Positions 16,807 through 20,779 of a DNA stretch of 64,000 bases are shown here, piece after piece; the first letter of the stretch is position 1; each line of letters begins with the position of its first letter. A model generated the notes under the pieces. That model was not told where the DNA came from, ran no database searches, and worked only from the letters and a program-made list of their open reading frames with translations. Where the stretch lies: NCBI GenBank assembly GCA_963843145.1, contig CAWJJC010000022.1, positions 438,006-502,005 of the forward strand, written 5' to 3'. Made by a program: the position numbers and the translations under genes. The stretch comes from an uncultured delta proteobacterium (GTDB lineage Bacteria; Desulfobacterota; RBG-13-43-22).

Positions 16807-17856
16807 TTATGGTTCCAGAAAGCATTGCGGGTCTTCGCCGGTCAGGTGGGGACGCCCCGCGGCCCGGGAAAAGGCATAGGCCATAGCCCGGCATCCCCGA
16901 CAGGCCGCCCACCGGCGGCAACGGCCGCATTTTCCTTCGTAACTGTTTCTATCCCTTAGCCGCTCCAGTACCGGGGAGCCGCTCCAGAGTTCACGCAGGG
17001 AGTCCCGGCGCACATTTCCGATGGGGACCGGCAACCGGCGGCAGGGAGTGACCGTGCCGTCGGCCATCAAGGTCAAGCCGGATACCCCGGCCGCGCACCC
17101 GCCTTGGGGGAACCCTCCCAGGTCGTTCGGATCAGCGCCCGACTCCATCTGCCGGTAAAGGGGATCGCCGCTGACCAGTTCCAATCCCTCGGGAGAGAGG
17201 GAATGGATTTCCTGATAAAGGTCCCGGACTTGATCCGGTTTTAACAGCTTGGAAGAGAGCAGGGCCCCTTGACCGGCGGGGATCAATCGGGAGAACCCCA
17301 GCCGCTGGACGTTCAAGGCCTGGGCCAGGGGAATCATTTTTAAAAATTGGTCCCGGTTGAGATCGGATAAAGTTGTATTGATGGTCACCGGGATCCCGGC
17401 TTCCACTAAGGTTCCGATCCCTTTCAGCGCTTCGGCAAAACTGCCTTTCCCCCTGAGGGCATCATGGGTTTCCTCCAGACCTTCCAGACTGATCTGGACT
17501 CCCCGAACCGCCAGGCGGCTCAGTCGGCCTGCCCTATCCCGGTCCAGGAGGGTTCCGTTGGTCAGGAGATAAAGGTCAAAACCCCGCCGACTCATTTCTT
17601 CGAGAATTAGAAAAAGATCGGAGCGCAGGAATGGCTCTCCTCCGGTAACATTGATACTGGTCTGGAAGGTCAGGCCATAGCTATTTGACCAGTCTGCCAG
17701 CATCAGGGTTATCTCGTTCAGGGTTTCTTTGATTTCAGAGAAAGTTAGTTCCTCAAAAGGCCCTTTCTCCTGATAGCAGTGGAGACAATGAAGATTGCAT
17801 TTTTCGGTCAGATGCCATTGAAAAAAGAAATCAAAGGGGTGGTCGGTTTGCATCAT
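16807..17856 (-). CDS. radical SAM/SPASM domain protein, candidate peptide maturase
   Basis: QWHLTEKCNLHCLHCY, TGGEP; SPASM Cys pattern CAAG..DGTVTPC..KCGRC....CRGC...DPQC. Confidence 0.92.
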   Translation of the reverse strand: MMQTDHPFDFFFQWHLTEKCNLHCLHCYQEKGPFEELTFSEIKETLNEITLMLADWSNSYGLTFQTSINVTGGEPFLRSDLFLILEEMSRRGFDLYLLTNGTLLDRDRAGRLSRLAVRGVQISLEGLEETHDALRGKGSFAEALKGIGTLVEAGIPVTINTTLSDLNRDQFLKMIPLAQALNVQRLGFSRLIPAGQGALLSSKLLKPDQVRDLYQEIHSLSPEGLELVSGDPLYRQMESGADPNDLGGFPQGGCAAGVSGLTLMADGTVTPCRRLPVPIGNVRRDSLRELWSGSPVLERLRDRNSYEGKCGRCRRWAACRGCRAMAYAFSRAAGRPHLTGEDPQCFLEP

Positions 17857-17882
17857 TCAGGTCCGTTTTCTGGTCTTCATTC

Positions 17883-18054
17883 TAAACCCTCTGACCCGGG
17901 GCGGGCACCCCAAATGAACGTCGAACATTGAACATCGAACGCCCAACCTCGAATGAAAAACAAGCTTCCATTGCCGGACAGAGAGTGTCAAATCTTGTTC
18001 TTTCATCTTCTTTTATTCAATATTCGATGTTGGAAGTTCGATGTTCGATGTTCA
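17883..18054. repeat. inverted heptamer-repeat (aacatcg / cgatgtt) hairpin element with a GGGCGGGCACCCC end
   Basis: Related copy at 25477-25618; arms are tandem 7-mers in inverted orientation. Confidence 0.8.
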
Positions 18055-18145
18055 ATTGCTCAATGACCCTTACAAAGCCCATCCAGCGCAAAAATAACCT
18101 ACGGCCTATTGGGCGCGGGCGGGCTATTTTCATACCAAGGACAAA

Positions 18146-18200
18146 GGCGGATAGGGAGCAGGTTAGCGATGCTTTTTCCCCGCCTCCTCCCTATCCGTCC
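18146..18200 (-). terminator. stem-loop downstream of the small peptide gene
   Basis: 11-bp perfect stem cggatagggag / ctccctatccg followed by ttt on the minus strand. Confidence 0.6.
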
Positions 18201-18228
18201 GTTGATTCCATTGCTGAACCAGCAATGT

Positions 18229-18351
18229 TTACGATTTTCAGCCTTTTCACTTGTGGCATACTGTTTTGGGACCTTCCTTCGCCGCTGCCTTCATTTTGGC
18301 CCAAAAAGCTGCCTCTTTCGCCAACCCCTCCGGGTTCATCTTTTTTTTCAT
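18229..18351 (-). CDS. candidate selenopeptide MKKKMNPEGLAKEAAFWAKMKAAAKEGPKTVCHK-U-KG-U-KS (34 aa if the first UGA is a stop)
   Basis: Strong RBS aaaggaggtg before the ATG at 18351; in-frame TGA at 18249-18247 and 18240-18238; hairpin cattgctg-gtt-cagcaatg starts 10 nt after the second TGA. Confidence 0.65.
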
Positions 18352-18434
18352 CCTTTTTCACCTCCTTTCTTTTGTTAAGTATCCGGTATCGAGTTTCGTC
18401 TCTATCCGGCATCCGTCTTTTCAACCCGCGAACC

Positions 18435-20121: not shown

Positions 20122-20652
20122 TCATTTTACCAGGTCCGCCTCCACCTCCAGGTTAAGGAGGACCTCATTCCCGGCCACCAGGCCGCCGTTTTCCATGGTG
20201 AAATTCCAGCTTACTCCGAAATCATGGCGGTTGATGCGGGTAGTCGCCGAAAAGCCGATGCTGATGTCTTCGTCGAAGGGACTTTTCACTTTCCCCAGGT
20301 ATTCAAGGTCCAGGGGTACGGATCGGGTGACACCCCGGATGGTCAAATCGCCGGTCACTTTAAAGCTATGAATGGCTACCGGTTCCATCCTGAGACCCTT
20401 AAATTGGATGAGCGGATGATTATGCACGTCTAAAAAATCAGGGCTGCACAAGTGCTCGTCCCGCTTCGGGATACCGGTATAAATGGAGGCGGCTTCGATT
20501 TCGACTTCCACCGAACCCAGGTCGGGTTTGTCCGGATCGAATTGAATGGACCCGGAAATCTTGTTGAACTGGCCGCGAACCAGGGTGATCATGAAGTGCC
20601 GGACGGTAAAGGCGGCCACGGTGTGATCAGGGTCAATTTTCCACTCAGACAT
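20122..20652 (-). CDS. YceI family protein
   Basis: WKIDPDHT..F.VRH, RDEHL.SPDFLD, GDLTIRGVT, INRHDFG. Confidence 0.92.
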   Translation of the reverse strand: MSEWKIDPDHTVAAFTVRHFMITLVRGQFNKISGSIQFDPDKPDLGSVEVEIEAASIYTGIPKRDEHLCSPDFLDVHNHPLIQFKGLRMEPVAIHSFKVTGDLTIRGVTRSVPLDLEYLGKVKSPFDEDISIGFSATTRINRHDFGVSWNFTMENGGLVAGNEVLLNLEVEADLVK

Positions 20653-20779
20653 AGAAACCTCCTTGAAATTCCATTTGCCAACAACCAGAGGAAAGTTTAA
20701 CATAGTTTAAAGAAAGTTTCTAGTCCAGCGGCTCGACCCTGTTGTAAAAATATTGATACCATTGATATAGGTGGCCTTT

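Follow-up and report, generated by a model that had tools for sequence, protein, structure and literature searches.

Does a small gene hidden upstream of a radical S-adenosylmethionine (SAM)/SPASM enzyme gene encode a peptide with two selenocysteine (Sec) residues, and is this peptide the substrate of the enzyme? The question is raised by a locus on the minus strand of a 64,000-nucleotide stretch of contig CAWJJC010000022.1 (assembly GCA_963843145.1, positions 438,006 to 502,005) from an uncultured delta proteobacterium of the RBG-13-43-22 lineage of the Desulfobacterota; the whole stretch is called the window below. From its letters alone, an original prediction had proposed an open reading frame (ORF) through two TGA codons, followed by a hairpin resembling a bacterial Sec insertion sequence (SECIS) and by the enzyme gene. 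Our analysis argues for a peptide with two Sec residues as the substrate of a dedicated SPASM maturase, and we put the probability of this reading at about 0.68. Loci, genomes and proteins of this analysis are designated by L-, G- and P-numbers, respectively, with G000 being the window's own genome.

A small gene with two in-frame TGA codons

The predicted features were all recovered in the sequence, namely the ribosome binding site, the ATG at 18351, the frame through two TGA codons with the arrangement C-x2-U-x2-U, the perfect 8-bp hairpin with its spacings, a further stem-loop and the radical SAM/SPASM gene following next. Those belonging to the proposed system are arranged as follows (coordinates of the window):

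18359..18368, minus strand: Shine-Dalgarno-like sequence AAAGGAGGTG, read from the sequence, with GGAGG 9 nt before the ATG
18229..18351, minus strand: selenopeptide gene of 40 codons plus TAA, translated with TGA as U, with the ATG at 18351
18247..18249, minus strand: first in-frame TGA (predicted Sec35), from sequence and homologs
18238..18240, minus strand: second in-frame TGA (predicted Sec38), from sequence and homologs
18209..18227, minus strand: SECIS-type hairpin in the 3' untranslated region (UTR), with a perfect 8-bp stem and the loop GUU, one base 3' of the stop codon
16807..17856, minus strand: radical SAM/SPASM enzyme of 349 amino acids (aa), assigned by Pfam, the next co-oriented gene

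The frame reads MKKKMNPEGLAKEAAFWAKMKAAAKEGPKTVCHK-TGA-K-G-TGA-K-S-TAA, with the stop codon TAA at 18231-18229 on the minus strand. The peptide consists of a leader-like helix region, which contains the invariant residues E13 and W17, and the core C32-H-K-U35-K-G-U38-K-S. As the original prediction had remarked, the program-made ORF list misses the gene and shows at this place only a 77-aa ORF in a different frame (18191..18424).

We searched for the enzyme in 41 related genomes and found orthologs of at least 48% identity in 16 genomes, at 18 loci. The upstream 1.5 kb were read at 19 loci of the enzyme (L015-L031, L041 and L042), a set unselected with respect to the peptide motif. A homologous small ORF ending in C-[HR]-K-TGA-[KE]-[GS]-TGA/TGC-K-S-stop was present at 17 of these 19 loci, which corresponds to all 17 assessable orthologs; the two exceptions are L042, where the flank extends over just 165 nt, and L031, which codes for a homolog of 38-40% identity with an internal stop. 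In addition, a degenerate 30-nt pattern (43 bits) was scanned over both strands of one genome per species, amounting to 596 Gb, and matched at least 120 stretches compared to about 0.1 expected by chance according to our own calculation. A reversed control pattern gave no match in the 41 genomes, versus 17 for the true pattern. Eighty of the pattern loci were examined, and 79 of them contained the whole ORF of leader and core; the remaining one, L048 from Berkiella, was rejected as a chance match without peptide context. According to the record titles, the 80 loci comprise 61 of Nitrospirota type (Nitrospirae/Nitrospirota, Thermodesulfovibrionales, Dissulfurispiraceae and Ca. Sulfobium), 16 of Desulfobacterota type (delta proteobacterium, Syntrophorhabdales, Syntrophus, Syntrophobacterales and Thermodesulfobacteriota) and one each from Chloroflexota, Pseudomonadota and Berkiella. 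Among the Desulfobacterota-type loci is that of a cultured carrier, Syntrophorhabdus aromaticivorans UI (L113). The length of the peptide is nearly fixed, and an alignment of 69 distinct sequences showed a mean column identity of 71% with E13, W17, C32, K34, U35, U38 and K39 invariant and the core consensus C-[H/R]-K-U-K-[G/S]-U-K-[S/T].

Codon usage was counted in 88 unique family sequences. TGA at the first Sec position of all 88 is dictated by the search pattern; the 17 sequences anchored by the enzyme gene, which were not ascertained by the pattern, likewise all carry TGA there. At the second Sec position, we found TGA in 87 sequences and TGC (Cys) in one. The Gly/Ser position between the TGAs is occupied by GGN (50) or AGY (38) and the codon following K39 by AGY (67), TCN (18) or ACN (3), with none of the Arg and TGN codons that the pattern also permits at those positions appearing in the 88 sequences. 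Even the 17 anchored sequences use the Ser codons TCG, TCT, TCA, TCC and AGC and both AAA and AAG for Lys, and over the six codons that follow the first TGA, the encoded amino acids are conserved. Because Ser and Lys codons vary synonymously beyond both TGAs, selection on the protein continues past both of them. The reading frame always ends 3 codons after the second UGA, by TAA in 44, TAG in 7 and TGA in 37 of the 88 sequences. Taken together, the comparison of these sequences indicates that the peptide is very probably translated with two Sec residues. The sole Cys codon occurs in genome G020, which contains two peptide genes (C15:128582-128611, L027/L076, and C10:222943-222972, L109); the copy adjacent to the enzyme gene carries Cys at the second Sec position, its core being C-H-K-U-E-S-C-K-S.

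The alternative that both UGAs are ordinary stop codons would imply a 34-residue product ending at Lys34, with the downstream bases and the hairpin acting as RNA only, e.g., by titrating SelB or stabilizing the transcript. A peptide profile searched against 1.84 billion protein representatives yielded 118 proteins at E <= 0.001. In 110 of them, the sequence breaks off at profile position 34, directly before the first TGA, and in two more (P0042 and P0080) it does so at this position as well, where Ser replaces Lys. A further match is this gene translated with TGA as Trp; the remainder included P0107, which matches leader positions 1-23 only and then diverges, and three unrelated repeat proteins. 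A word-indexed search with the 40-aa peptide retrieved only 5 close matches, all truncated at 34 aa. Public databases thus show the family only as truncated, hypothetical 34-mers. These 112 of 118 end points come from gene callers, and the near absence of Cys homologs would also suit ordinary stops. Against this alternative stand the conserved amino acids past both UGAs, with Ser drawn from both the TCN and AGY families, the stop codon always placed 3 codons past the second UGA, the Cys codon at the second position in G020 and the hairpin of fdhF-type sequence at decoding distance (see below), and we consider it very improbable. The last of the 118 profile matches, P0113 (47 aa), shares the leader (…KEALAKEAAFW…) and continues with a different C-terminal tail devoid of an in-frame TGA; judged by its sequence, it may be a Sec-free sister peptide.

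The hairpin behind the stop codon and predicted Sec decoding

Bacterial SECIS elements are hairpins just 3' of the UGA codon with a G early in the apical loop. The hairpin of the window consists of CATTGCTG-gtt-CAGCAATG (18227-18209, minus strand) and starts 10 nt past the second TGA, which places the first loop base 18 nt past the second and 27 nt past the first TGA. We aligned 85 distinct sequences from the first TGA and counted a helix of 7 pairs. Its cells were paired in 89.7% of cases, compared to 16-52% with the partner strand slid; changes on both sides were seen in 5 of the 7 pairs (51 cells), and none of 500 shuffles reached the covariation score. Strong conservation marks the helix core UUGC/GCAA; switches occur in the outer pairs and in those closing the loop. 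The first loop base is located 15-18 nt past the second UGA in 84 of the 88 unique sequences, and the commonest loops are GGTC (27), GGTCA (23), TGGAT (10) and GTT (9). The short fixed distance, the G in the apical loop and the compensatory changes expected of a bacterial SECIS are all found in this hairpin.

A close known counterpart of the element is the fdhF SECIS of E. coli (NC_000913.3), in which the TGA is followed by 11 nt and GGTTGCAGGTCTGCACC, with 18 nt to the first loop base. Both are short hairpins with a GGUC-type loop and the same distance of 18 nt between UGA and first loop base, and the hairpins of L113, L068, L081 and L088 even share 14 contiguous bases, GTTGCAGGTCTGCA, with the fdhF SECIS. 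The peptide hairpin differs from that of fdhF in its location past the stop codon, entirely within the 3' UTR, in a stem without visible bulged U, in having to serve two UGAs 9 nt apart and in the presence of a third UGA 6 nt beyond the second, which is the stop codon in 37 of the 88 family sequences. Because of the covariation, the G-containing loop and the fdhF-like sequence and spacing, the proposed SECIS-like nature of the hairpin has held up; the comparison supports a canonical SelB-type SECIS at canonical distance from the second UGA, and binding of SelB is predicted. No bacterial SECIS model was matched between 16000 and 19500 in an Rfam search at E <= 10, which returned only chance-level miRNA and sRNA matches; the existence of a fitting Rfam model was not checked.

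The suggestion that one SECIS might serve two UGAs is also upheld, since apart from the single hairpin there is no conserved structure that both could use. In the decoding mechanism that we propose, a basic peptide of 40 residues would be translated by reading both UGAs as Sec, with one SelB-binding SECIS in the 3' UTR whose distance from the second UGA resembles that in fdhF, and with 9 nt more to the first. Where UGA is used as stop codon, as in many species, it lies 6 nt past the second UGA and 0-7 nt before the stem; this third UGA would be too close to the hairpin for recoding and would terminate translation. If true, a decoding rule would follow, by which one SECIS in the 3' UTR directs Sec insertion at two UGAs separated by 9 nt, and a third UGA 6 nt further on ends translation.

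The genome of the window possesses the necessary machinery, which the original prediction had named as a point to be checked: G000 contains genes for tRNA-Sec, SelA (609.4 bits), SelB (368.8 bits) and SelD, the latter with an in-frame TGA of its own. SelA is present in 37 of the 41 relatives, and SelB was found in all five peptide-bearing genomes that were reached via the pattern scan. The SelD of G000 (C27:447576-448499, L010) appears as a selenoprotein itself, with the in-frame TGA in the context AAG-U-ASKLGPG, and the RNA downstream of this TGA is unlike the peptide hairpin. A narrow scan of G000 looked for hairpins of the same type located 6-32 nt behind an in-frame TGA; of 3 raw combinations of hairpin and TGA, only the peptide locus passed the ORF filter.

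The radical SAM/SPASM enzyme and its probable partnership with the peptide

The enzyme belongs to the radical SAM superfamily according to its Pfam domains (Radical_SAM PF04055, 82 bits; SPASM PF13186, 42 bits) and its cluster motif CxxxCxxC at C20, C24 and C27, which is invariant in 52 orthologs. Seven further Cys residues in the C-terminal part (254, 272, 310, 313, 319, 322 and 345) are invariant in the same orthologs. Because the protein begins only 19 residues before CxxxCxxC, it lacks an N-terminal domain resembling a RiPP recognition element (RRE; RiPP, ribosomally synthesized peptide with post-translational modification). An AlphaFold2 model with a mean predicted local distance difference test score (pLDDT) of 89.1 was compared to solved structures by Foldseek, and the nearest folds were those of SkfB (6EFN), SuiB (5V1T), PqqE (6C8V), anSME (4K37), CteB (5WGG) and ChlB (9GMC). 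The enzyme shares with these Cys-directed SPASM/twitch peptide maturases the fold class (E 1.8e-17 to 1.8e-12; template modelling score 0.64-0.75, normalized to the query), the CxxxCxxC motif with a Cys-rich SPASM region and a peptide encoded next door; it differs from them by an identity of only 16-24%, the missing RRE-like domain and the predicted Sec residues of its substrate. In SPASM enzymes such as CteB, an auxiliary cluster may keep an open site for the substrate thiolate, and the seven C-terminal Cys residues are compatible with such a site for a thiolate or selenolate.

None of the NCBIfam models matched the enzyme above its cut-off. The highest scores were obtained with TIGR04545 (AhbD; 176.2 bits versus a cut-off of 500) and TIGR04082 (SbtM; 163.7 versus 350), and those with the ACGX, NirJ2, TIGR04053, GeoRSP and MftC models were far under the cut-offs as well. 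The top rank of TIGR04545 and the naming of several homologs as 'AdoMet-dependent heme synthase' in JGI records (annotations from other sources are generic) might suggest that the enzyme is a heme synthase without functional link to the peptide. Its score falls far below the cut-off, however, and the true AhbD of G000 is encoded elsewhere (C20:662638-663654, 545.1 bits, versus 173.4 bits for the enzyme gene in the same comparison). As the co-occurrence with the peptide and the modelled interface described below also speak against it, we regard this assignment as extremely improbable. Given the true AhbD in G000, the heme-synthase naming of the subfamily in JGI records is probably a misannotation.

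The peptide gene is syntenic with the enzyme gene, as the synteny check proposed with the original prediction had required of a true pair: the peptide gene lies upstream of all 17 assessable orthologs, and the two co-occur genome by genome. Among the 41 relatives, all 16 ortholog-bearing genomes contain the motif and 24 contain neither, including five of a genus in which nine others have both; in the last genome, the motif is located at a contig end without the enzyme gene. In the 79 true peptide loci, a match to the enzyme follows downstream on the same strand in 61 cases, starting 26-418 nt after the stop codon. Of the others, 10 are clearly without it over at least 2 kb downstream, 5 probably so over 0.6-1.1 kb and 3 are too short. 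Five genomes of the unlinked kind were tested, and each of them encodes an ortholog of 53-57% identity elsewhere, with no peptide gene within 1.5 kb of it. The enzyme genes of L119 (5088-6239, minus strand; 4 in-frame stops, 42% identity) and L077 (only the C-terminal 70 residues match) are possibly decaying copies.

We modelled the complex from the enzyme, using the alignment of 52 orthologs, and the 34 residues preceding the first UGA, using the alignment of 69 peptide sequences. The interface score ipSAE was 0.87 in all three runs, and the best of three controls scored 0.02. Between runs, at least 89% of the contacts agreed, and the pLDDT of the partner was at least 72. For comparison, 58 of 80 solved complexes attained this mark, and so did 2 of 110 mismatched pairs, which is a rough yardstick here since we used our own alignments. 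In the model, E13 and W17 of the peptide, together with A14 and F16, contact the invariant enzyme residues W56, R288, W291 and R301 and the nearly invariant Y60, and peptide residues 29-34 including Cys32 lie against residues 230-232, 251-255 (with C254) and 317-322 (with C322) of the SPASM region. The model supports binding of the peptide by the enzyme, and together with the co-occurrence we consider a functional partnership of the two to be quite likely.

From these results, we propose that the peptide gene is expressed from its own ribosome binding site and that a conserved amphipathic helix of the product (E13, A14, F16, W17) would dock on the invariant enzyme residues, feeding the Cys/Sec tail into the cleft beside the SPASM cysteines, as predicted by the model. 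With seven SPASM Cys residues available for two auxiliary clusters, one iron might stay free for a thiolate or selenolate, and radical chemistry may then occur on or next to Cys and Sec, e.g., forming a thio- or selenoether cross-link, a side-chain oxidation or a heterocycle. As there is neither an RRE nor a conserved protease or transporter, the case for such a modification comes from the class of the enzyme and the interface in the model; on these grounds, the enzyme probably modifies the C/U core covalently. As no conserved protease or exporter is encoded nearby, an intracellular Se-dependent redox, metal-binding or cofactor-like peptide appears more likely as the product than a secreted antibiotic. 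A further-reaching version, which we put forward tentatively and consider doubtful, is an obligately Se-dependent module derived from the peptide, intracellular and common among anaerobic Nitrospirota and Desulfobacterota, in which the RRE-less SPASM enzyme binds the selenolate at the open iron of an auxiliary cluster and performs Se-specific radical chemistry leading to a cofactor-like product for redox reactions or metal binding. If this were true, selenoether cross-links or a new Se heterocycle on the C-x2-U-x2-U core would be possible, and the scarcity of Cys forms would imply that selenium cannot be replaced by sulfur.

Several observations weigh against a double-Sec substrate of a dedicated maturase. 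The support from Cys homologs is thin, consisting of one variant at one position in one genome, and even this genome, G020, keeps a canonical copy as its stand-alone gene. No all-Cys form was among the 118 profile matches, and when metagenome contigs were scanned for Cys at the first position, the only match was a chance one. The first UGA is located 9 nt beyond the E. coli-type optimum of fdhF spacing experiments, and its efficient decoding is presumed. The flavour of the hairpin was not tied to another selenoprotein gene of G000 in the narrow scan. Adjacency of the two genes is lost in the 10 clear and 5 probable cases among 76 assessable loci, and the search of the neighbourhoods revealed no conserved protease, transporter or exporter, which adds to the missing RRE. 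Finally, the modelled peptide ended before the first UGA and the Sec residues were not placed.

Some of these points would suit a double-Sec small protein which works unmodified in redox reactions or metal binding via its CxxUxxU motif, with the enzyme as a partner, client or co-regulated neighbour. CxxU and UxxU are typical motifs of redox-active or metal-binding selenoproteins, with UxxU families tabulated in the accessible part of PMC13188914, no conserved protease, exporter or RRE domain indicates a maturation pathway, and the peptide gene lies apart from the enzyme gene in at least 10 loci. This does not explain why the co-occurrence with a single subfamily of radical SAM enzymes persists even where the genes are unlinked. 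Moreover, the high-scoring model places peptide residues 29-34 by the SPASM cysteines, and the nearest folds all belong to SPASM or twitch enzymes modifying peptides or proteins. We consider an unmodified protein unlikely and continue to favour the modified substrate.

Two other features of the window complete the surroundings of the gene pair:

18137..18196, minus strand: GC-rich stem-loop (18196-18149) plus T-rich tract between the peptide and enzyme genes, terminator-like according to its fold
20122..20703, minus strand: YceI-like protein, two genes upstream of the peptide gene (Pfam YceI, 158.8 bits)

A 131-nt region with the stem-loop has a folding energy of -52.2 kcal/mol (z = -5.15), and a stem like GGCGGAT...ATCCGCC with a T-rich tract was recognized by eye in the sequences of 16 of 17 relatives. 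The element of the window, in which the T-run is weak, was not flagged by a consensus scan, and a strict detector recorded a perfect stem with T-run at only 8 of the 88 loci. The fold in the window and the 17 sequences inspected by eye suggest a terminator-like hairpin after the peptide gene in the lineage of the window. Tandem rare-decoding codons, a hairpin and a terminator-like stem-loop in front of the enzyme gene resemble the layout of attenuators, in which case the peptide would be a cis-acting leader: the progress of the ribosome through the UGAs would report the supply of Sec-tRNA or selenium and tune transcription of the enzyme gene via the terminator-like hairpin. However, the peptide gene lies far from the enzyme gene in all five tested genomes of the unlinked kind and precedes unrelated or opposite-strand genes in such loci, and the enzyme gene of L030/L066 starts 26 nt after the stop codon without any terminator. 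The leader residues are also under strong selection, with E13 and W17 invariant, and contact invariant enzyme residues in the model. A regulatory leader is hardly probable on this evidence.

Between the terminator-like hairpin and the enzyme gene, the window contains a palindromic repeat (17912-18060) with arms of about 45 nt (GTTCGATGTTCAATGTTCGACG-like). The repeat explains why the spacer between the peptide and enzyme genes is longer in the window than in other members of the genus (402 versus 152-296 nt). The repeat gave 105 blastn matches on 12 contigs of G000, and its arms occur in great abundance in metagenome contigs from soils, sediments and wetlands, where they have many kinds of flanks and interiors that vary; it looks like a dispersed repeat of the repetitive extragenic palindromic (REP) or miniature inverted-repeat transposable element (MITE) type. 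Public sequencing runs covered only small parts of the window, and the contigs obtained from one RNA and three DNA runs were short. The RNA run contained two contigs on the enzyme gene, for which DNA carry-over is possible, and none over the peptide, which is uninformative either way.

The search of the neighbourhoods of the 79 loci showed no third conserved gene around the pair, and its neighbours in S. aromaticivorans are housekeeping genes. The YceI-like gene of the window is a possible loose associate outside the claimed system. A YceI-like ORF was recorded in 14 of the 79 loci (including L045, L069 and L114), following the enzyme gene in 12 of them and following the peptide gene directly in two loci where the enzyme gene had moved away. 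A membrane methyltransferase of the PEMT/ICMT type occupies the same place in 8 of the 79 loci, and both types of ORF were observed only in Nitrospirota-labelled loci. They possibly reflect an accessory function or mere synteny within the lineage.

Relation to known selenopeptide systems

The peptide gene, which accompanies the radical SAM enzyme in more than a hundred species of anaerobic bacteria, is invisible to annotation, as the ORF is overlooked by gene callers or ended by them at the first UGA, and it would add a family to the prokaryotic selenoproteome. Beyond that, it would offer a natural system for studying the chemistry of radical SAM enzymes with selenium, the near-intolerance of Cys and the reach of a SECIS over two Sec codons and a nearby UGA stop. 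As there is a cultured carrier, S. aromaticivorans UI, whose hairpin contains 14 bases identical to those of fdhF, direct expression in E. coli may work.

Known families with a similar C-terminal arrangement are the 'UXX-star' and UxxU families of NCBIfam (NF041114, NF041211, NF041115 and TIGR02605), which are listed in a table of the 2026 review PMC13188914, as far as it is accessible. They share with the peptide either a Sec three residues from the C-terminus or the UxxU motif. The peptide differs in that a comparison with the 18,950 NCBIfam models gave no match at E <= 1, and the accessible part of the review does not describe these families as linked to radical SAM enzymes. Neither NCBIfam release 20 nor Pfam contains a specific family for the peptide or the enzyme. 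The literature searched mentions no such family either, and none appears in the selenoprotein table of PMC13188914, in BSepDB (PMC13326102) or in the 2022 Haft preprint (bioRxiv 10.1101/2022.07.06.499078), as far as their accessible passages extend; a description in Haft & Tolstoy 2025 or in supplements is possible.

The closest known system is SbtA/SbtM, the sole family of Sec-containing peptides matured by a radical SAM enzyme in the literature and family libraries searched, in which SbtM converts Gly-Cys or Gly-Sec to a thio(seleno)oxazole, according to the accessible parts of PMC9204691 and PMC11002830. The outline is similar: in both cases, anaerobic Desulfobacterota combine a peptide containing UGA-encoded Sec with a radical SAM/SPASM enzyme, the Sec is close to the C-terminus and a short SECIS hairpin is located at the stop codon or behind it. 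In the same phylum, real SbtA genes indeed contain a comparable short hairpin just past the stop codon following the last UGA. Every test for membership in SbtA/SbtM failed, which agrees with the initial impression of a separate family. The peptide matched neither TIGR04081 nor any other NCBIfam model at E <= 1, and its core C[HR]KUK[GS]UK[ST] contains no SGUG or GGUG. The SbtA peptides encoded beside SbtM proteins scoring over the cut-off (L194 and L197) are entirely different, with about 90-110 aa, a hydrophobic segment at the N-terminus and SGUG motifs at wide spacing, compared to 40 Lys-rich residues with C-x2-U-x2-U in the peptide described here. The enzyme stays far below the TIGR04082 cut-off and aligns only to positions 199-516 of the 516 positions of the SbtM model, i.e., its core resembles that of SbtM and the N-terminal part of about 195 residues is absent.

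No SbtM scoring over the cut-off is encoded in G000. A sample of 201 genomes of the phylum included 12 with true SbtM, which coexists with the peptide and enzyme described here in two of them, G003 and G011; because of this coexistence, the two are paralogous systems. In G003, which belongs to the same genus as the window, the true SbtM (716 bits) is encoded about 4.4 kb from the gene pair on the same contig (G003:C54:70406-77528), and the 1.5-kb flank of this SbtM gene contains no SbtA.

On the literature and libraries searched, the evidence points to a second, previously undescribed family of Sec-containing modified peptides. It would stand beside SbtA/SbtM as the second family of Sec-containing peptides matured by a radical SAM enzyme, with an unrelated peptide and a distinct enzyme, and it is more widespread than SbtA/SbtM in the genomes sampled.

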